Positions 14,054-24,000 of a stretch of 24,000 bases of DNA are shown here, one piece after another; position 1 is the first letter of the stretch; each line of letters opens with the position of its first letter. The translations under genes and the position numbers were made by a program. Below the pieces are notes generated by a model. It made no database searches. It was given only the letters and a program-made list of their open reading frames with translations, and was not told the DNA's origin. Location: positions 22,676 to 46,675 of the forward strand of contig BAXG01000025.1 of NCBI GenBank assembly GCA_001310455.1, in the 5' to 3' direction. This DNA comes from Photobacterium sp. JCM 19050. GTDB taxonomy: Bacteria > Pseudomonadota > Gammaproteobacteria > Enterobacterales > Vibrionaceae.

Positions 14054-14556
14054 TATAAAATTGCCACGTCGTATTAAATATAAAGGTGAAGGAAGAATGG
14101 GCTTTCCTATTTAAAAGGGAAAACCAACTATCTCTCTTCAAAGTGTTTTTGTGGGTTTTTATATTAAAATCATAAAATTACGTCGTTCATTGAATGGCGA
14201 GAAATACGCATGAGTGACGATCATATTATTTGTGAGATGCATGATCAAATTTGAGTTAAACAGACTGAGTTAAGTAGGTTTATTTTACATTGATGAATAT
14301 TTCTAATTGCCTTTTTAATGTTAATCAATAATCAATGGGGAATTAATTAATGATAATTGTAAAATAAAGGTGTTAATAACAACGACTGAATGAAACACCG
14401 GTGTCTATGAACGCAACGCATTGGTGCTTTGCGATTTCATCAACACTGAAACCTGAAGAGCATCACTTTTGGGGTGGGATTTGAAATCGTTTCCAATCGG
14501 GTTGAAACAGAAGTTCTATAGTGATCACAAAAAGGTACAAATATTCTATTTTAATC

Positions 14557-14584
14557 TTGTTGTGAAACATTAATTTCATATAGT
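14557..14584 (+). promoter_or_regulatory. candidate iolD promoter with an operator-like palindrome filling the spacer
   Basis: -35 TTGTTG (14557-14562), palindrome TGAAA-CATTAA-TTTCA (14563-14578), -10 TATAGT (14579-14584), about 80 nt upstream of the iolD ATG. The iolC promoter has the same layout. Confidence 0.45.
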
Positions 14585-14662
14585 GGCTGAAAAGAAGCGT
14601 GGAGCGGATCGACACTTTTTGAGCCGCACCTGATAGGACATAGCGTATTTCGGAGTTTGGAT

Positions 14663-16597
14663 ATGGGTACACTCAAACTGACCACGGCACAGGCATTGGT
14701 GAAGTTCCTGAATCAACAGTATGTGGATGTTGACGGGCAGGAACATAAATTTGTCCACGGCGTATTGACGATATTTGGTCACGGTAATGTTGTTGGCCTG
14801 GGGCAAGCCCTGGAACAGGATGCCGGGGACTTGATCGTCCACCAGGGCTGTAATGAACAGGGTATGGCACATATCGCCATGGGATTTGCCAAACAACAAA
14901 AACGGAAAAAGATTTATGCGGTAACGTCTTCCGTCGGACCCGGTGCGGCGAACATGGTGACTGCCGCTGCGACAGCAACCGCCAACCGGATTCCTGTCCT
15001 GTTCCTGCCGGGTGATCTCTTTGCATCCCGCCAGCCGGACCCCGTGTTGCAGCAAGTCGAGCAATATCATGACTGCTCAATCAGTACCAACGACTGCTTC
15101 CGTCCGGTCTCACGCTATTGGGATCGTGTTTCCCGCCCTGAGCAATTGATGACGGCGATGATTAACGCCATGCGCGTACTGACCGACCCGGCAGATACCG
15201 GCGCAGTGACTATTTGCCTGCCGCAGGATGTGCAGGGTGAAGCCTACGACTTCCCGGAATATTTCTTTAAAAAACGCGTCCACCGTATAGAGCGTCGTCC
15301 GGCGACAGAAGCCATGCTGGCTGATGCGGTTGAACTGATTCGCCGCAAGAAAAAGCCGATGCTGGTGTGCGGCGGTGGTGTCCGGTATTCCGAAGCCCAT
15401 GATGCATTCCGGCAATTTGCTGAAACTTTCAATATTCCGTTTGGGGAAACTCAGGCCGGGAAGAGTGCCATTGTGGCGGAACATCCCCTCAACTGCGGCG
15501 GGGTAGGGACAACCGGTTGTCTGGCAGCCAACCTGATTGCCAAGGAAGCGGATCTGGTGATTGGCGTGGGTACCCGCTTTACGGATTTCACAACCGCATC
15601 CAAGTCGTTGTTCCAGAACCCGGATGTGGAATTCCTCACCATTAATGTGGCCGAATTTGATGCCTTCAAACTCGATGCCGTCCCTGTGGTGGCAGATGCG
15701 CGCGCTGCGCTGGAAGCGTTGTCAGAAAAACTGCAGGCAACGGGATACCATAGCGGTTACGGCAACGAGATAGTTGATGCCAGAAGTGCCTGGAATGCTG
15801 AGCTTGAGCGCCTTTTCAGTATTCGGGTCGATGACGGTTTTGTACCGGAAGTGCCGGGCCATCTGGATGACAAATTGGGTGAGTATGCCGCAACCCTTTC
15901 TACCCAACTTGCGCAGACGCGGGTGCTTGGGGTGATGGATAAATACCTCGAAGATGATGCCATTGTGGTTGGGGCGGCCGGGTCATTGCCGGGAGATCTG
16001 CAGCGAGTATGGCGACCGAAAACACCGGACACTTACCATATGGAATACGGCTATTCCTGCATGGGCTATGAGGTTGCCGCTGCTGTGGGTGCCAAGCTCG
16101 CCCGCCCGGATCAGCCCGTTTATGCTATGTTGGGTGACGGCTCATACATGATGCTTCATTCCGAGTTGCAAACCGCAGTTCAGGAAGGCACTAAAATTAC
16201 GCTTCTGCTGTTTGATAACGCAAGCTTTGGCTGTATCAACAACCTGCAAATGAGTCAGGGTATGGGAAGTTACGGTACGGAAAACCGCCACCGCGATCCG
16301 GAAACTGGCAAGATGACCGGCCCGTTAGTGAAGGTCGATTTTGCCAAAAACGCAGAAAGCTATGGCTGTAAGGCTTATTCCGTCCACACGGAAGAAGAAC
16401 TGGTCGCCGCGCTGGAAGAGGCAAAACTGCAAGCCGGTCCGGTGTTGATTGACATCAAAGTGTTGCCCAAAACGATGACTCACGGTTATGAGGCGTGGTG
16501 GCGCACCGGTACTGCACAGGTGGCAGACAAGCCGGAAATTGTGGCTGCTGCTGAGGGTATTAAGCAGGTGCTTGCTACCAAGGCTCGCCAGTACTGA
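14663..16597 (+). CDS. iolD: 3D-(3,5/4)-trihydroxycyclohexane-1,2-dione acylhydrolase (decyclizing) IolD
   Basis: [25 protein letters not shown]...[18 protein letters not shown]...[15 protein letters not shown]...[14 protein letters not shown]...[11 protein letters not shown]...GCINNLQM...[14 protein letters not shown] is colinear with B. subtilis IolD as recalled; it is a ThDP-dependent enzyme. GGAG at 14652-14655 supports the ATG at 14663 over the track's TTG at 14657. Confidence 0.92.
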
Positions 16598-16613
16598 TAC
16601 ATTTTTACCGAGT

Positions 16614-16642
16614 GGGGGCAGCTTTCAGGCTGCTCCCTTTTC
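16614..16642 (+). terminator. rho-independent terminator after iolD
   Basis: GGGGGCAGC (16614-16622) pairs with GCTGCTCCC (16629-37), including one G-U pair, around loop TTTCAG, followed by TTTTC. Confidence 0.7.
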
Positions 16643-16746
16643 GGTCTGTTCCTTTGGCTGCTCGCCACTTGCTTCTTTCTTCAATCTTTCCTCTTTTCTC
16701 TTCCGTCATCTCTATGTGTTTGCGTGTTTGTCCTCTGCCATCGGAA

Positions 16747-16767
16747 TGAAACGAAATATTTGTTTCA
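16747..16767 (+). promoter_or_regulatory. additional copy of the GAAA-N6-TTTC palindrome (possible auxiliary operator)
   Basis: TGAAACGAAA-TATTTG-TTTCA. The core CGAAA-N6-TTTCA lies at 16752-16767, about 400 nt upstream of iolG. Confidence 0.3.
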
Positions 16768-16970
16768 CTTTATGTTGCAGATGATGTTTACGCAAATTGC
16801 ATCGAATAGTCCTGAGGTTTGAGCAATTTATCGAGTTTTCATACTCGTTTAACCCCAGTTATTTCTGATGGTTATGCCTGCCTCGACTCGGATGTATTTC
16901 GTGATCGCAGTGACAGGATTTGCTGTCTTCCGGTCAAAAAATGATACCCTTGCGACAAAAATAAAATATT

Positions 16971-17013
16971 CATTTCATAGCATATATGAAATGTACGTTT
17001 CACTTGATATATT
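16971..17013 (+). promoter_or_regulatory. candidate iolG promoter/operator region
   Basis: Perfect 9-bp inverted repeat CATTTCATA (16971-16979) / TATGAAATG (16985-16993). It overlaps TGAAA-TGTACG-TTTCA (16987-17002), which is followed by the -10-like TATATT (17008-17013). Confidence 0.4.
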
Positions 17014-17163
17014 CCCGTCATCGATTAGGTAATTGATTAATCCTGTTCGAAAAATCCTGTCAACTCGGTTGAATTCTGTTTGTGGAAAACCCCTGAAGTG
17101 TTTCCGATAAATGGGGGAGTCCAGAAACTTCTGCCGGCTAAGAGCCGGTTCCAAGGAGCCCTT

Positions 17164-18150
17164 ATGTACAATATCGCATTGTTTGGTGCAGGCCGTATCG
17201 GCCAGGTTCATGCGGTTAACATCGCTGAACACAAGGAAACTTCTCTCTATTCCGTGATTGACCCGTACCAGGAAGGTGCAAATTCACTGGCAGAAAAATA
17301 TGGCGCTAAGGTTCAGTCTGTGCAGGAAGCAATGGCTGACCCGAATGTTCATGGCGTGCTGATCGCGTCAGCTACTGACACCCATGCAGAGCTGATTGAG
17401 ATGGCCGCCAAAGCCGGCAAAACCATTTTCTGTGAAAAGCCGGTCCACCTGGATATTGAGCGAGTCCGTGAATGCCTGGCGACCGTGAAGGAGTACAACG
17501 TCCCGCTGTTTGTGGGCTTTAACCGCCGTTATGACCCGCAGTTCCGCAAAGTGCGTGAGATGCTGAGCGCCGGAGCCATCGGCCAGGCAGAATCGCTGAT
17601 TATCACCTCCCGCGATCCGTCTCCACCGCCTGCTAACTATGTGAAAGTCTCCGGTGGCATGTTCCGCGACATGACCATCCACGATTTCGACATGGCACGT
17701 TTCATTATGGGCGAGGATCCTGTCTCTGTGTATGCACAGGGCAGCAACATGGTTGACCCTGAAATCGGCCAGGCCGGTGACATTGATACCGCCTTTATCG
17801 TGATGAAATTCCCATCCGGCGCGATGGCGACCATTTCCAACAGCCGCCGCTCCGGTTATGGATATGACCAGCGTATCGAGTTGCATGGTGCCAAAGGTCT
17901 TCTCACGGCGAAAAACATGCTCGAAGATCAGGTAGAGAAATGGGGTGAAGCCGGATGTGTTGCCGCGAAACCGGAGCACTTCTTCCTGCAGCGCTACAAC
18001 GCTGCCTACAAGGCTGAGTGGAACCACTTTGTTGATGTGCTGGCAGGCCGTGCAGCACCAGAGTGCAGCGGTTATGACGGCGAACAGGCACTCCGCCTGG
18101 CTGACATGGCCTTTGAATCACTCGCCACGGGCAAAGAAATCAAACTGTAA
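17164..18150 (+). CDS. iolG: myo-inositol 2-dehydrogenase (Gfo/Idh/MocA family), IolG/IdhA
   Basis: MYNIALFGAGRIGQVHAVNI...ASATDTHAELIEMAAKAGKTIFCEKPVHLD...FVGFNRRYDPQF resembles rhizobial IdhA/IolG. AAGGAG at 17152-17157 supports the ATG at 17164; the track's 17080 start adds an implausible leader. Confidence 0.85.
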   Translation: MYNIALFGAGRIGQVHAVNIAEHKETSLYSVIDPYQEGANSLAEKYGAKVQSVQEAMADPNVHGVLIASATDTHAELIEMAAKAGKTIFCEKPVHLDIERVRECLATVKEYNVPLFVGFNRRYDPQFRKVREMLSAGAIGQAESLIITSRDPSPPPANYVKVSGGMFRDMTIHDFDMARFIMGEDPVSVYAQGSNMVDPEIGQAGDIDTAFIVMKFPSGAMATISNSRRSGYGYDQRIELHGAKGLLTAKNMLEDQVEKWGEAGCVAAKPEHFFLQRYNAAYKAEWNHFVDVLAGRAAPECSGYDGEQALRLADMAFESLATGKEIKL

Positions 18151-18164
18151 TCTTCCGTCATTTT

Positions 18165-18193
18165 GGAGCGGCAACCCGCCGCTCCGCTTTTTT
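18165..18193 (+). terminator. rho-independent terminator after iolG
   Basis: GGAGCGGC (18165-18172) pairs with GCCGCTCC (18178-18185) around loop AACCC, followed by GCTTTTTTC. Confidence 0.75.
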
Positions 18194-18279
18194 CTGACGA
18201 GTTTCAAATCCAATCTTTCCGGAAACGGGGTTACTCCCGTTGCCGCAAGCATGATGCAAACGAAAATCAGGAGGACGTT

Positions 18280-19978
18280 ATGCTGGCGTTTATTTCGTTT
18301 CTCGGCTTTACCCTGTTTGTTGCAGGCTTTGCGTATTACAAAACCAAAAATGCTCACCTGACTGATTCTGCTGAAGGTTATTTCCTTGGCGGACGCTCGC
18401 TGACCGGCGTGTATATCGGTGGTTCCATGCTGCTGATGAACCTTTCCACTGAACACCTGGTTGGCTTGAATGGCTTGTCTTTCCGCACCGGGTTTATCGT
18501 GATGGCGTGGGAAGTGATGGCAGCGATGGCCATTGTGCTGTTTGCAATTTTCTTTCTGCCCCGCTACCTCAAGCTCGGTATCTCCACTATCCCCGAGTAT
18601 CTTGAAAAGCGCTTTGACAAGCAGACCCTGACCATTACATCCATTCTGTTCCTTGGTATGTACGTTATCTCCCTTCTGCCATCGTGCTTTATACCGGTGC
18701 GATTGCACTGGAAAGCCTGTTCCAGGTGTCCGACGTGTTTAATGTCGACAAGACGACCGCGCTTTGGATCATGGTGTGGGGCGTGGGTGGACTGGGTGCC
18801 ATTTATGCGGTCTTTGGCGGTATTAAGGCAATTGCGGTGGCAGATACCATCAACGGTGTCGGTCTGATTACCGGTGGCCTGATGGTAACGCTGTTCGCCC
18901 TGGCTACGTGGGTGATGGCAATATTTTGAGTGGTTTGACGGAAGTCTACCAACACAACCCGGAGAAGTTTAACTCCATTGGTGATGAAGACTCGCTGGTG
19001 CCGTTTTCAACCTTGTTTACCGGCCTTGTTGTTTCCAACCTGTTCTTCTGGTGTACCAACCAGTCGATTGTGCAAAAAGCACTGGGTGCGAAGAACCTTG
19101 CAGAAGGCCAGAAAGGCGTACTACTGTGTGCCTTCTTCAAACTGGTTATCCCGACCATCATCATCCTGCCGGGCATCATTGCTTTCCATATTTTCCAGGG
19201 TCAGATCGATAACCCGGACAATGCCTACCCGATGCTGGTAGAGCTTGTGCTGCCGGAAATGCTGGTTGGTTTCTTTGCAGCGGTTGTCGTGGGGGCGGTG
19301 TTCTCTACCTTCAGTGGCGGCCTGAACTCCTCTGTCACGCTGTTTACCGTCAACATCTTCAAAAAGAGCCTCAAGCCGGATGCAACAGAAGCCCAGACGG
19401 TGGCGCTGGGTAAATACCTCGGCCTTGGCCTTGCGGTGGTGTCGATGATTGTCGCCCCGCTGGTGGCAAATGCGCCGGACGGCCTTTTCTACCTCATCCA
19501 ACAGCTTCAGGGCATCTTCAACGCCCCCATTCTGAGTGTGGTGATGGTGGGCCTGCTTACTAAACGTGTTCCCGCCATTGCTGCCAAGCTTGGCCTGTTG
19601 TTCGGTATGTCAGCCTATATCCTGTTTAACTTTGTGGTGAAAGTGGATATCCATTTCTTCCACCTCGTTGGCTTGCTGTTTGCCGGTAACATCGTCTTTA
19701 TGTTGGTTGTCGGGTATTTCTTTCCGCAAGAGGCCTACGAAGAGGTGTATACCGAGCAGGTGGATATCAAGCCTTGGTCAATGGTCAAGCCGGTTTCCCT
19801 GCTTATCGCGCTGGGTTCCGTCTCCATGTACGTCTATCTGGCGCATAACGTACCGGGCTGGGTGATGACCGGCTACTATGTGTTTGCCGTTGCGTCCCTG
19901 GCTTATGTGTTCTGGTCTATTGGACGTGAATTGATGAATAGCCCGCGTGCGTCAATGCGCACACAAAAACAAGGCTAA
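18280..19978 (+). pseudogene. SGLT-type sodium:solute symporter family (SSS) protein, likely myo-inositol or sugar uptake, with 2 single-base deletions
   Basis: Three ORFs join: MLAFISFLGFTLFV...YFLGGRSLTG...TIPEYLEKRFDKQ...YVISLLPS|VLYTGAIALESLF...VFGGIKAIAVADTINGV...LFALAT|VGDGNILSGL...FFWCTNQSIVQKALGAKNLAEGQKGVLLCAFFKLVIP.... This resembles Vibrio vSGLT as recalled. AGGAGG at 18268-18273 supports the ATG at 18280. The inositol substrate is inferred from context only. Confidence 0.8.
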
Positions 19979-19990
19979 AAGTTGGAAAAT

Positions 19991-20021
19991 AAACGCCCCG
20001 GTAACGGTACCGGGGCGTTTT
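19991..20021 (+). terminator. rho-independent terminator after the symporter gene
   Basis: Perfect 13-bp stem: AAACGCCCCGGTA (19991-20003) pairs with TACCGGGGCGTTT (20008-20020) around loop ACGG. A-tract and T-tract flank it, so it could work in both directions. Confidence 0.8.
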
Positions 20022-20036
20022 ATGGCTGGATGTACG

Positions 20037-22037
20037 ATGGATCAGTCTCTTCTTCCCAATATCTTTGATTTCCTTTCCCGCACCGACCCCTTTGATACGC
20101 TCTCCCCTGAAGAAAGGGAAAAGCTGGCGGCATCGGTGGATATTTCCTATCTGGCTCAGGGTGACAAACTGGATGGAAGCCGAATTGTCGGTACCGGTTT
20201 ATATATGGTGCGTACCGGCGCGGTTGAACAACGCTATCCGGACGGTGCGCTCCGCGCTCGCCTCGGTAGCGGAGATCTGTTCGGGTTCAGCCAGATGCAC
20301 CGCCACGGCGAGTGCGAATACGCACTGGTCGCACTTGAGAATACGCTGCTGTACCTGATTCCCCGGCAGGTGCTGGACAGGTTGATTGCCGAGAACCCGG
20401 CGGTCAGCCACTACTTTGCCGCCACAGAAGGCGTGCGTCTGGCAAGCAGCAAGCAAAATGATATCTGGGGTGGGAACAACAGCCTCTACCTCAGTACCGT
20501 AGGCAGCACGTTAAACCGGACTGTGGTCAGGGTGACACCGGATATGTTAATCCGCGAAGCTGCGCAGGAGATGGTGCGGCTTCACCGTTCAAGTGCGCTG
20601 GTCATGGACGGGGATACCCTGGTCGGCATTGTGACCGACAGGGACATGACCAAGCGCGTGGTGGCAGAAGGCCTGGATATCAGCCTGCCGGTTTCTTCTG
20701 TCATGACGGAAATGCCGGTTGCCATTGACAGCGAAGCCCCTCTTATCCGGGCCGTTGAACAGATGATGCAGCACAACGTGCGCAGTTTGCCGGTCTTGGA
20801 AAACGGTAAAGTGGCGGGTGTGATGACCGCAACCAGCCTCGTCCAGAAAAGCCAGATCCAGGCGGTTTACCTGATTAGCCGTATCTACCGGCAGGAAAGC
20901 ATTGCTGACCTGAAAATACTGGCAGTGCAGCGCCAGTCAGTTTACGAAACGCTGGTAGAAAATGGCGTTCATCCCCGAACTGTCTTGCAGATGATGACGC
21001 TGATTGCAGACGCCTTTAACAAGCGCCTTTTACAGCTTGGCGAGCGGGAGCTTGGCAGCCCGCCTTGTGATTACGCCTGGATAGTGGCGGGGTCCCATGC
21101 CCGGAATGAAATGCACTGCCTTTCGGACCAGGACAGTGGCATCGTGCTCGGGTGCGAGCCGGATGAGCACCAGAGAAGGTATTTTCAGGCACTGGCTGAA
21201 TTTGTCTGCAATGGCATGGATGAGTGTGGTTATCCACTGTGTACCGGCCACATGATGGCAACCCATTCTAAGTGGTGTAATTCCCTGCAAGGTTGGCAGA
21301 GTCATTACCGGGAATGGGTGATGCAGCCGGAGGCGGAAAGCCTGCTCAACATCAGCGTGTTCCTTGATACCCGTTTTCTCTATGGCAATGAGAAACTGGC
21401 TGAGATGCTAAGAGCGACGGTTCAACAATACACCCGGGACAACCGCCGCTTTCTTGCGGTACTGGTGGCAAACTCCCTTCGAGTAAACCCGCCATTGGGT
21501 ATGTTCCGGCAGTTTGTCCTGGCAAAAGACGGCGAGAACCGGAACGTTTTCAACATCAAAAAACAGGCGATAAACCTGTTGGTAGAGCTCGCCCGAATTT
21601 ACGCTCTGGCAGCGAACAGCGGTGAAACCGGAACAGAAGAGCGGCTTGATGCCGCGGCCGCAGCCGGGGTGATCAGCGAGGAAAGCCGCAAGGAGCTTAC
21701 CGAGGCATTCCACTTTATCTGCCAGGTGCGTTTCCACCACCAACGAAGCGCAATCGGGCGAGGGGAGGTGGCGTCAAACAATATCGTCCCGGCCTGGCTG
21801 ACCCAGTTTGAGCGAAACCACCTGAAGGATGCATTCCGGATTATTGCCCGAACCCAGGAAGCTGCAATGCAGCGTTTCAGTGCCGAGGGGTGCTTAGATG
21901 ATCGGCAGGCTCCGTACAGCGCTTGCGGGCCGTCATCCATTGGCAAAGTTGGAAAAACAGCGGAAGCAACTGCTCGAAAAAGGCCAGGTGCCGGCACCGT
22001 TGTTACCCCTTTACCAAATGCCGGTCCCCCAGGCTGA
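20037..22037 (+). CDS. cyclic-nucleotide-binding / tandem CBS / DUF294 putative nucleotidyltransferase protein; the 3' end is possibly frameshifted, with a native stop perhaps at 21899-21901
   Basis: N-terminal cNMP-binding-like region (GTGLYMVRTGAVEQRYPDG...GDLFGF), a CBS pair (ALVMDGDTLVGIVTDRDM..., VRSLPVLENGKVAGVMTATSL) and an NTase core (YAWIVAGSHARNEMHCLSDQDSGIV) with a substrate-binding tail. The ATG at 20037 lies after the upstream terminator, and the track's 19947 start reads through it. As written, the ORF overlaps the next gene by 140 nt. Confidence 0.75.
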   Translation: MDQSLLPNIFDFLSRTDPFDTLSPEEREKLAASVDISYLAQGDKLDGSRIVGTGLYMVRTGAVEQRYPDGALRARLGSGDLFGFSQMHRHGECEYALVALENTLLYLIPRQVLDRLIAENPAVSHYFAATEGVRLASSKQNDIWGGNNSLYLSTVGSTLNRTVVRVTPDMLIREAAQEMVRLHRSSALVMDGDTLVGIVTDRDMTKRVVAEGLDISLPVSSVMTEMPVAIDSEAPLIRAVEQMMQHNVRSLPVLENGKVAGVMTATSLVQKSQIQAVYLISRIYRQESIADLKILAVQRQSVYETLVENGVHPRTVLQMMTLIADAFNKRLLQLGERELGSPPCDYAWIVAGSHARNEMHCLSDQDSGIVLGCEPDEHQRRYFQALAEFVCNGMDECGYPLCTGHMMATHSKWCNSLQGWQSHYREWVMQPEAESLLNISVFLDTRFLYGNEKLAEMLRATVQQYTRDNRRFLAVLVANSLRVNPPLGMFRQFVLAKDGENRNVFNIKKQAINLLVELARIYALAANSGETGTEERLDAAAAAGVISEESRKELTEAFHFICQVRFHHQRSAIGRGEVASNNIVPAWLTQFERNHLKDAFRIIARTQEAAMQRFSAEGCLDDRQAPYSACGPSSIGKVGKTAEATARKRPGAGTVVTPLPNAGPPG

Positions 22038-22632
22038 TGCCCGTTGGGAAACGCTGTCTTTTCTGGTGCTGGATTTTGAAACCTCCGGGTTGGATCCGGC
22101 CAATGACCGGATTCTTTCAATAGGACATGTCAGCGTTGAAAACAGTGTGCTGAAACTGTCCTCTGCAAAACATATCTATGTTGATGGCGGCGTTGAGGTC
22201 AGCCCGGAGGCGGCTGTTATCAATCATATTACGCCGCAAAACCTCGCCGGAGGTTGTTCAGATCAGGAAGGGATTTCGTATCTGGTCAGGCAAATGGCCG
22301 GGAAAGTTGTTATTGCCCATGGCAGTGCCATTGAGCGGGGCTTTTTGCATCAGGCGCTTGGTATCTATATCGACTTCCCGTTGCCTGTGGTCTGGCTTGA
22401 TACGCTGATGCTGGAAAGATCGCTGGCGGTTAACCGGGGATGCAGTAAAAAAGATTTCCGGCTTTGCACCTTGCGGGAGCAAAAAGGGTTGCCGGCATAC
22501 CATGCCCACAATGCCCTGGTCGATGCCGTTGCTACCGGAGAGCTGTTTCTGGTATTGGTTCGGGAAATTTTTGGCCGGGAAAAACCGATACTGGGGCCAC
22601 TTTTTATCCGTTCATGTTACGGGAGACCATGA
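21898..22632 (+). CDS. DEDDh-type 3'-5' exonuclease (DnaQ / DNA polymerase III epsilon-like domain)
   Basis: Exo I motif LVLDFETSGLD, Exo II-like VVIAHGSAIERGFL and Exo III HAHNALVDAVATGELF. The start lies in an ATGA context typical of translational coupling to the upstream gene. Confidence 0.8.
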   Translation: MIGRLRTALAGRHPLAKLEKQRKQLLEKGQVPAPLLPLYQMPVPQADARWETLSFLVLDFETSGLDPANDRILSIGHVSVENSVLKLSSAKHIYVDGGVEVSPEAAVINHITPQNLAGGCSDQEGISYLVRQMAGKVVIAHGSAIERGFLHQALGIYIDFPLPVVWLDTLMLERSLAVNRGCSKKDFRLCTLREQKGLPAYHAHNALVDAVATGELFLVLVREIFGREKPILGPLFIRSCYGRP

Positions 22633-22843
22633 AACAGGCATTTCAAAAAGTGGCGTCATTGAGCTTGGTTTGGGTGATGCGAACCCGGGATTTTTGCGTA
22701 GGTAAATGTGTTCTGGCCTGCGATAAAGTTCATTCGGTCATGCCTTCAACTCACGGTTTTTACCGGTGTTTTCACTTCCTGCTTCGTCATTACAGCTGAA
22801 ACCCCGTAGTGATCACGAAATGAAATAAATGAACTGATTTCAA

Positions 22844-22872
22844 TTGTATGTGAAATATATATTTCGTATAAA
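22844..22872 (+). promoter_or_regulatory. candidate iolC promoter with an operator-like palindrome filling the spacer
   Basis: -35 TTGTAT (22844-22849), then G plus TGAAA-TATATA-TTTCG (22851-22866; GAAATATATATTTC is a perfect 14-bp palindrome), then -10 TATAAA (22867-22872). This lies about 190 nt upstream of the iolC ATG. Confidence 0.45.
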
Positions 22873-23059: not shown

Positions 23060-24000
23060 ATGGGCAGTGAAAAGCAGTTTGATGTGATTTGTATGGGCAG
23101 AATCGCCGTCGATCTCTATGGACAGCAGATTGGTTCCCGTCTTGAGGATATGGGCAGCTTTGCCAAATACCTCGGGGGGTCATCAGGCAACGTGGCTTAC
23201 GGTACAGCCCGCCAGGGGCTGAAATCCTCCATGCTTGCCCGGGTGGGGGATGAACATATGGGACGCTTCTTGCGCGAGGAGCTGGTCAATGTCGGCTGTG
23301 ATACCAGCCACTTGATCACCGACACAGAACGCCTGACAGGCCTGGTGATTCTGGGCATCAAGGATGAGGACACCTTCCCGCTGATTTTCTACCGTGACAA
23401 CTGCGCTGATATGGCGATCACGCGGGAAGACTTTACGGAAGACTATATTGCATCGGCGCGTTGCCTGGCGATTACCGGTACCCACCTTTCCCACCCCAAA
23501 CCCGCGATGCGGTGCTGACAGCCTTGGAATATGCCCGTCGTAACGGGGTGAAAACGGCCATTGATATTGACTACCGCCCGGTGCTTTGGGGCTTGACGTC
23601 TCTGGGGGACGGAGAAACGCGCTTTATTGAATCCGGCCAGGTGACGGAACAGCTACAGGAAGTGCTTGGCTTGTTTGACCTGATTGTGGGGACCGAAGAG
23701 GAATTCCATATTGCAGGTGGCTCGACGGACACGATCGAATCCCTCCGAAAAGTGCGGGAGCTGACAGGTGCAGAGCTGGTTTGCAAGCGAGGTTCGTTGG
23801 GGTGCAGTGTCTTTACCGGAGACATTCCGGATACCTGGATGAGGGGATTACCGTTAAAGGTGTGCGGGTGGAAGTGCTGAACGTCCTTGGCGCGGGAGAT
23901 GCTTTTATGTCCGGCCTGCTGCGCGGTTACCTAAACGGGGAAGGCTGGGAAAAAGCCTGTGCTTATGCCAACGCCTGTGGTGCGTTGGTGGTGTCACGCC
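23060..24000 (+). pseudogene. iolC: 5-dehydro-2-deoxygluconokinase IolC (PfkB family), with 2 single-base deletions; the 3' end lies outside the window
   Basis: MGSEKQFDVICMGRIAVDLYGQQIGSRLEDMGSFAKYLGGSSGNVAYG...ITGTHLSHPK|TRDAVLTALEYARRNGVKTAIDIDYRPVLWG...GDIPDTW|DEGITVKGVRVEVLNVLGAGDAFMSGLLRGYL... The EYAR..DxDYRP and GAGDAF motifs match IolC / PfkB kinases. AAGGAG at 23047-23052 precedes the ATG at 23060. Confidence 0.85.

Follow-up and report, generated by a model that had tools for sequence, protein, structure and literature searches.

Which regulator, if any, reads the TGAAA-N6-TTTCR palindrome that recurs in front of inositol (iol) genes in Photobacterium sp. JCM 19050? We asked this of a 24,000-nucleotide stretch of its genome (contig C25:22676-46675, hereafter the window), in which the palindrome lies 5' of iolD, iolG and iolC1. 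An earlier note on this DNA had listed four 16-bp dyads (14563-14578, 16752-16767, 16987-17002 and 22851-22866) and proposed them as operators of an RpiR-type IolR. All four are present exactly as written, and the proposal gains backing from the specificity of the motif within the genome, its conservation in at least ten genera and a linked iolR gene. Like known IolR boxes, the dyads are 16-bp palindromes of 5-N6-5 geometry, are enriched at iol genes, co-occur with an iolR that has an upstream site of its own, and are conserved across genera. We conclude, from comparison of sequences, that they are very probably operators ("IolR boxes") of the RpiR-family regulator IolR.

The dyads are concentrated in the iol region

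Within the window, TGAAA-N6-TTTCR gave eight strand-matches at five places, against 0.17 expected, and none of 100 shuffles equaled this count (Table 1). Position 6 is a pyrimidine and position 11 a purine in every real site, which gives the core TGAAAY-N4-RTTTCA; the extended consensus is AAATGAAATATATATTTCATTT. The 9-bp inverted repeat CATTTCATA/TATGAAATG that had been described at 16971-16993 is there, and it is the junction of two neighboring boxes, because a second box, TAAAATATTCATTTCA, sits at 16962-16977, 25 bp (center to center) from the box at 16987. The TGAAAC half-sites said to be scattered over 14389-14510 also exist, but only the one at 14503 resembles a full site, and its score in the scan described below is 7.6. 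The closest relative in the set of genomes searched is Parasalinivibrio latis TLL-SE01 (Vibrionaceae), where a good site, TGAAACAGAAATTTCG (L036:11773), occupies the orthologous position, 60 bp 5' of the iolD box. The weak dyad at 22630 is possibly a low-affinity auxiliary site, or else a chance match.

Following a suggestion in the earlier note, we scanned the whole 5.44-Mb genome with a position weight matrix (PWM), 22 bp long and derived from 193 distinct sites in other genera, not counting Parasalinivibrio. Eight of the ten best matches fell in the iol region, and the remaining two at a single locus on contig C1; the five strong sites of the window scored 23.5-26.1. The simple core TGAAAYNNNNRTTTCA, allowing at most one mismatch, placed 10 of its 98 genome matches in the 26-kb iol region.

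An alternative is that the dyads bind no protein and arose as a by-product, either of AT-rich promoter DNA or of the duplication of promoter modules. A further TGAAAC half-site, with TAGTGATCAC at an equal spacing of 44 bp, is indeed common to the putative promoters of iolD and iolC1, so that shared descent is possible, and one dyad-like sequence inside iolR is explained by a conserved peptide, as described below. A similar density in AT-rich intergenic DNA had been named beforehand as grounds for giving up the operator idea. Among the 823 kb of the genome with at most 42% G+C, however, the iol region has 2.5 strong sites per kb and the remainder 0.015, an enrichment of about 170-fold (Poisson P ~5e-16). 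Because, in addition, the palindrome is conserved in at least ten genera while its flanks diverge, and a reversed-pattern control scores 17-fold lower, we consider a by-product extremely improbable.

The two top-ten matches on contig C1, TGAAACGTATATTTCA and TGAAATAAACATTCCA, lie together with CGAAATGTACGTTTCG in an 800-bp intergenic region (L003:4932-5740; contig C1:63190-63998), and both are perfect in P. latis. To one side is a gene resembling tartronate-semialdehyde and 3-hydroxyisobutyrate dehydrogenases, followed by a gene for a urea/branched-chain-type binding protein; to the other is a gene for a 1116-residue secreted protein with CBM6, CBM35, PKD and beta-propeller repeats. Judged by these sites, the genes at this locus are candidate extra members of the IolR regulon.

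iolR lies nearby behind a box of its own

The iolR homolog, which had been left to be located, is on the same contig, ~15.5 kb past the end of the window. With L001 denoting the next 20 kb of contig C25 past the window (coordinates L001:n), this RpiR-family gene occupies L001:15522-16253 on the minus strand and is divergent from iolC2, with a box at L001:16410 in the region between the two. Its product carries an N-terminal HTH_6 (helix-turn-helix) domain and a C-terminal, sugar-phosphate-binding SIS domain; the closest solved structure is Vibrio vulnificus NanR (PDB 4IVN; E = 3.5e-16, at low sequence similarity). Two further boxes, 30 bp apart, precede iolB at L001:13362 and L001:13392, and one of them, TGGAATTTTAATTTCA, is a hybrid of TGAAA and TGGAA half-sites.

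We propose that an IolR dimer would read one palindrome of 16-22 bp, made up of the TGAAAY-N4-RTTTCA core and AT-rich flanks. Most iol transcription units have at least two boxes, spaced 25-60 bp or 100-390 bp apart, and such pairs would suit cooperative binding or the formation of a tetramer. By analogy with other IolR systems (PMC5349611, PMC8877191), the repressor would leave its sites on binding 2-deoxy-5-keto-D-gluconate 6-phosphate (DKGP), a phosphorylated intermediate of the pathway, at the SIS domain, and the box 5' of iolR would give autoregulation.

Many public records misname IolR orthologs "Fe-S cluster assembly protein HesB" (P0009, P0018, P0025, P0040 and others), a misannotation that has been propagated, although the proteins so labeled have both the HTH_6 and the SIS domain and are encoded in iol clusters; the other usual annotation is only "MurR/RpiR family regulator". 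Inside iolR itself there is a dyad-like sequence, TGAAACAnnTGTTTCG (L001:16021-16036), which recurs at +217 of the gene in many loci. It is produced by the codons of a conserved peptide, MKQLFR, with only a slight codon bias toward the motif, and we did not count it as a binding site, which it probably is not (AAA 89% against a background of 71%, TTT 63% against 55%).

A second, divergent iol-like cluster lies on contig C4 (C4:141649-149717, partly covered by L133) and includes iolE', iolD', iolC', iolB' and the gene of an RpiR paralog that is 41% identical to IolR. Three variant dyads, TGAAAAATATTTTTCA, TGGAAAATCTTTTCCA and TGAAAAATATTTTCCA, precede iolE', TGAAAAATATTTTTCA being 5' of the first gene of the cluster, and the variant typical of the cluster is TGAAAA-N4-TTTTCA. 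From its sequence, the cluster appears to hold a paralogous pair of regulator and operator, distinguished at position 6, which fits regulator-specific half-sites.

Could another regulator bind the dyads of the window? The candidates would be a LacI-family protein of the cluster, two of whose genes lie between iolE and iolB, the RpiR paralog encoded on contig C4, or a global factor such as CRP, Cra or ArgR, and TGAAA-like half-sites do occur in several operator families. LacI-type operators are even palindromes with a conserved central CG, and the CRP consensus is TGTGA-N6-TCACA. The four central positions of the dyads, however, are A/T-rich with no preference for CG, and the motif accompanies iolR in clusters that have no LacI genes, in Xenorhabdus, Photorhabdus, Providencia, Moellerella and Pectobacterium. 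Nor does the TGAAA half-site fit CRP, whose pattern is not enriched; the spacing is wrong for Cra and ARG boxes; and a global regulator would hardly have its ten best matches restricted to two loci. The C4 cluster, for its part, has its own variant of the dyad. Binding by one of these other regulators thus seems quite improbable, and IolR remains the preferred reader of the boxes.

The motif accompanies iolR across genera

IolR orthologs in other Vibrionaceae and beyond are 54-69% identical to the protein encoded here. We scanned one genome per species around these orthologs, taking the best 80 loci with 10-kb flanks, and counted the 73 loci that were full length. The core motif occurred 291 times, compared with 17 times for a reversed, non-complemented control, and its matches peaked within 250 bp 5' of iolR (61 matches) and at the starts of other iol genes. 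In an unbiased tally of 5-mer palindromic dyads with spacers of 0-10 in iolR upstream regions from 16 genera, TGAAA-N6-TTTCA ranked first.

Conservation 5' of orthologous iol genes, a check named in the earlier note, was thus found in at least ten genera. Boxes precede iolA, iolB, iolC, iolG and iolR, as well as the gene for a sodium:solute symporter (SSS) in Xenorhabdus, and the centers of the sites cluster 55-108 bp ahead of the iolA, iolB, iolC and iolR start codons. The genera with boxes are Photobacterium, Vibrio, Thaumasiovibrio, Agarivorans, Xenorhabdus, Photorhabdus, Providencia, Moellerella and Pectobacterium, and boxes are also found in an Enterobacteriaceae-type island, reached through a protein cluster that includes Escherichia coli, Enterobacter, Citrobacter and Yersinia pseudotuberculosis proteins.

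At closer range, the regions 5' of iolG and iolC1 share 98% identity with those of P. latis and so are uninformative. The iolD upstream region is only ~60-80% identical or cannot be aligned, and within it the box and TATAGT form a conserved island with the core GTGAAAyrTTAATTTCATATAGTG. Two substitutions fall within the iolD box, and both versions have a pyrimidine as the sixth base. Identity with P. latis is also complete over the 35 nt that immediately precede the iolD ATG (14628-14662, CCTGATAGGACATAGCGTATTTCGGAGTTTGGAT), and the 40 nt 5' of these have diverged; the iolD leader folded no better than shuffled sequence.

Position of the boxes relative to putative promoters

How might IolR act from these sites? 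The strongest box at iolD and at iolC1 lies between a weak -35 and a good -10 hexamer, and at iolG over the putative -35 region; from such positions a bound repressor would exclude RNA polymerase. The iolD box is ~93 bp before the iolD ATG. The proximal iolG box overlaps a promoter-like ATGAAA-16-TATATT with an extended TG, called by a consensus promoter scan, such that the -35 overlaps the box. Across genera, 196 oriented sites show a preference for T-A-T just after the dyad, and hexamers resembling a -10 element, counted at +14 to +22 relative to the start of the dyad, are in modest excess on the gene strand (44 against 11). The earlier note had the iolD and iolC dyads fill the spacer between -35 and -10, as for a repressor that blocks RNA polymerase. 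Such hexamers do flank the iolD and iolC dyads, and the blocking of RNA polymerase is only partly supported.

Several observations weigh against reading the dyads as operators through which IolR occludes promoters here. In this assembly iolR has a 1-base deletion (GACAGCCAGG in P. latis, GACAGCAGG here) at L001:15560-15600 (contig C25 ~62236-62276), with a frameshift near residue 231 that cuts the SIS domain short; the sequence beyond is otherwise conserved, and P. latis iolR is intact at 274 residues. If the deletion is real, the repressor may be defective in this strain, but it may also be an assembly error, because many genes in the window are split. The counts across related genomes are not independent, although at least ten genera are represented. 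The IolR proteins of Erwinia, Pantoea, Serratia, Yersinia, Oceanisphaera and Zobellella are ~62-64% identical, and yet these genera show only degenerate or few copies of the motif, TGAAATTTTTTGTTCA and TGAAAAAAAAGTTTCA among them. Finally, the promoter scan called neither the iolD hexamer pair nor, on the plus strand, that of iolC1, the -35 elements of both of which match TTGACA at three of six positions, and the layout in which the operator fills the spacer is not general, because only about one fifth of the sites across genera directly precede a good -10-like hexamer.

The last two points also favor an alternative in which the boxes are IolR operators and the promoters lie elsewhere; IolR would then repress, or even activate, by binding upstream or downstream, by forming a loop between paired boxes or by acting as a roadblock. 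Pairing at distances of 25-390 bp would agree with it, as would the activation by an RpiR protein, SpNanR of Streptococcus pneumoniae, from a similar palindrome (bioRxiv 10.64898/2025.12.10.693482); cooperativity or looping through paired boxes, the main alternative to occlusion, is in keeping with the two affinity classes of Salmonella sites (PMC5349611), and promoters at the boxes would imply long leaders, ~180 nt for iolC1 and ~150 nt for iolG. Against this, conservation at iolD takes in both the box and TATAGT, -10-like hexamers are in excess on the gene strand, and in Caulobacter and Salmonella, where IolR has been characterized, it acts as a repressor (PMC2597717, PMC5349611). We regard promoters elsewhere as rather unlikely, and for the putative iolD and iolC1 promoters we give occlusion of the spacer by IolR a slight preference on the strength of their sequences.

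The weak -35 elements, together with nearby CRP-like sequences, suggest that these promoters may depend on an activator, as in Salmonella, where CRP sites occur in iol promoters (PMC10783015). Candidate sites are the CRP-like sequence at 16900-16915 and the TAGTGATCAC element, which is possibly half of a CRP-like site; CRP-like sequences as a class were not enriched above chance in the window. Each copy of TAGTGATCAC is preceded by a TGAAAC half-site, and the sharing of this arrangement could reflect a second regulatory element or common descent of the iolD and iolC1 promoters.

Genes of the window and its surroundings

The genome comprises 5.44 Mb in 116 contigs, with 50% G+C and a completeness of 93.8%. 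In P. latis the corresponding region is on chromosome 2. The features of the window are collected in Table 1.

Table 1. Putative IolR boxes, promoter elements and genes in the window (positions count from its first nucleotide; scores are from the 22-bp PWM).
Feature	Position	Strand	Remarks
Degenerate second box, TGAAACAGAAGTTCTA	14503..14518		Score 7.6
TAGTGATCAC element	14519..14528		44 bp 5' of iolD dyad
Putative iolD promoter	14557..14584	+	TTGTTG (-35, 3/6), 16-bp spacer = dyad, TATAGT (-10, 5/6; 14579-14584)
Putative IolR box 5' of iolD, TGAAACATTAATTTCA	14563..14578		Score 24.6, in genome's top ten
iolD, 3D-(3,5/4)-trihydroxycyclohexane-1,2-dione acylhydrolase	14663..16597	+	TIGR04377, 951 bits
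Terminator-like hairpin and T run, 3' of iolD	16614..16637	+	
Putative distal IolR box 5' of iolG, CGAAATATTTGTTTCA	16752..16767		Score 24.5
CRP-like sequence 5' of iolG boxes, CGTGATCGCAGTGACA	16900..16915	+	2 mismatches
Putative IolR box 5' of iolG, TAAAATATTCATTTCA	16962..16977		Score 23.5; overlooked in the earlier note
Putative proximal IolR box 5' of iolG, TGAAATGTACGTTTCA	16987..17002		Score 26.1, genome's best
iolG, inositol 2-dehydrogenase	17164..18150	+	TIGR04380, 454 bits
Sodium:solute symporter gene	18163..19978	+	In two frames (frame breaks, this assembly)
DUF294 nucleotidyltransferase (cNMP/CBS domains) and DEDDh exonuclease genes	19947..22632	+	DUF294 C-terminus frame-shifted
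Weak dyad on exonuclease stop codon, TGAAACAGGCATTTCA	22630..22645		Score 12.6; overlooked in the earlier note
TAGTGATCAC element, second copy	22807..22816		44 bp 5' of iolC1 dyad
Putative iolC1 promoter	22844..22872	+	TTGTAT (-35, 3/6), 17-bp spacer = g + dyad, TATAAA (-10, 5/6; 22867-22872)
Putative IolR box 5' of iolC1, TGAAATATATATTTCG	22851..22866		Score 25.4, genome's second best
iolC1, 5-dehydro-2-deoxygluconokinase/aldolase fusion	23060..24000	+	Runs on past window; split over three frames in this assembly

The true iolG start is the ATG at 17164, which follows AAGGAG; the match to TIGR04380 begins at residue 29 of a longer open reading frame. Frame breaks split several genes of the window (the symporter gene, iolC1, the C-terminus of the DUF294 gene, and yjeM), and many of them are probably assembly errors, because the complete P. 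latis genome appears to lack them. The symporter gene, for instance, is inferred to be a single continuous frame there. In both Parasalinivibrio genomes the DUF294 and DEDDh exonuclease genes stand between the symporter gene and iolC1; tblastn detected neither in the clusters of Xenorhabdus or Photorhabdus, in which iolC immediately follows the symporter gene. An Rfam scan of the window gave no match.

Past the window, L001 begins with the rest of iolC1, iolE, dehydrogenase genes and a second iolE-like gene that is apparently broken. There follow an ABC transporter with a rhizopine-type binding protein, the two LacI-family regulator genes and a PhyH-family dioxygenase gene, and then iolB, iolG2, the RpiR-family regulator gene on the minus strand, an intact second iolC copy (iolC2, L001:16482-18458) and iolA.

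Comparison with known inositol regulators

Inositol use matters for the colonization of guts and plants, and its induction in Salmonella is bistable and much studied. In a full-text literature search we found no paper that gives a consensus for gammaproteobacterial IolR. RegPrecise reportedly holds computational IolR regulogs for Enterobacterales and Vibrionales, which may already contain the motif. The dyads described here supply a precise candidate operator for the inositol repressor of Vibrionaceae, Morganellaceae, Pectobacterium and the Enterobacteriaceae-type island, and a solid basis for annotation and experiment. As an IolR box, the element is an orthologous repressor-operator pair with a shifted half-site, well defined, ordinary and not surprising.

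With a little less than even confidence, we further suggest that TGAAAY-N4-RTTTCA may be general for gammaproteobacterial IolR, Salmonella included, and that a single base pair in each half-site (TGAAAY versus TGAAAA) may separate the targets of RpiR paralogs within one genome. If so, the motif would account for the paired high- and low-affinity sites of Salmonella and point to new regulon members, the contig C1 locus for example, and its transfer to Salmonella would make binding-site mutants and regulon predictions straightforward.

In Salmonella enterica, IolR (STM4417; GEI4417/4436 promoters) is an autoregulated repressor with at least two sites of differing affinity per promoter, and DKGP is its proposed inducer (PMC5349611). 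Like the IolR described here, it is gammaproteobacterial and of RpiR type, and autoregulation and the repression of iol genes would be further shared features. Its binding has been narrowed only to ~100-bp regions (PMC5349611), and no consensus site was identified in three studies of it (PMC5349611, PMC4513076 and PMC10783015); two laboratories have reported the lack of one, and PMC4513076 is explicit on this.

A second point of comparison is SpNanR, the RpiR-family activator of S. pneumoniae, which binds a TGAAA...TTTCA palindrome, TCTGAAACTACTTTCAAA (bioRxiv 10.64898/2025.12.10.693482). NanR acts as an HTH_6 dimer on TGAAA/TTTCA half-sites, has a sugar-phosphate-binding SIS domain and is in a dimer-tetramer equilibrium, features that IolR, judged by its sequence, may well share. 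SpNanR differs in its N4 spacer, as opposed to N6, in being an activator, and in its pathway and effector.

The nearest parallel is the alphaproteobacterial RpiR-type IolR box, (T)GGAA-N6-TTCC(A), described for Caulobacter crescentus CC1297/IolR (PMC2597717), which bears out the GGAA-N6-TTCC that the earlier note had given and has the same 5-N6-5 geometry as the dyads here. Sinorhizobium meliloti IolR has the same box, according to Kohler et al. 2011 as cited in PMC2597717 and PMC8877191. The Caulobacter boxes are TGGACCATATGTTCCA and TGGAATATGCGTTACA, and mutation of one box derepresses iolC there (PMC2597717). In both groups the regulator belongs to the RpiR family, with a helix-turn-helix and an SIS domain, and the motif is a 16-bp palindrome placed 5' of iol catabolic or transporter genes and of iolR, often twice per promoter. 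The two differ in the half-site, TGAAA here and TGGAA in the alphaproteobacterial box, and in the center and flanks, which are far more AT-rich here. Between alpha- and gammaproteobacteria, the operator would thus have drifted by one base per half-site and kept its geometry.

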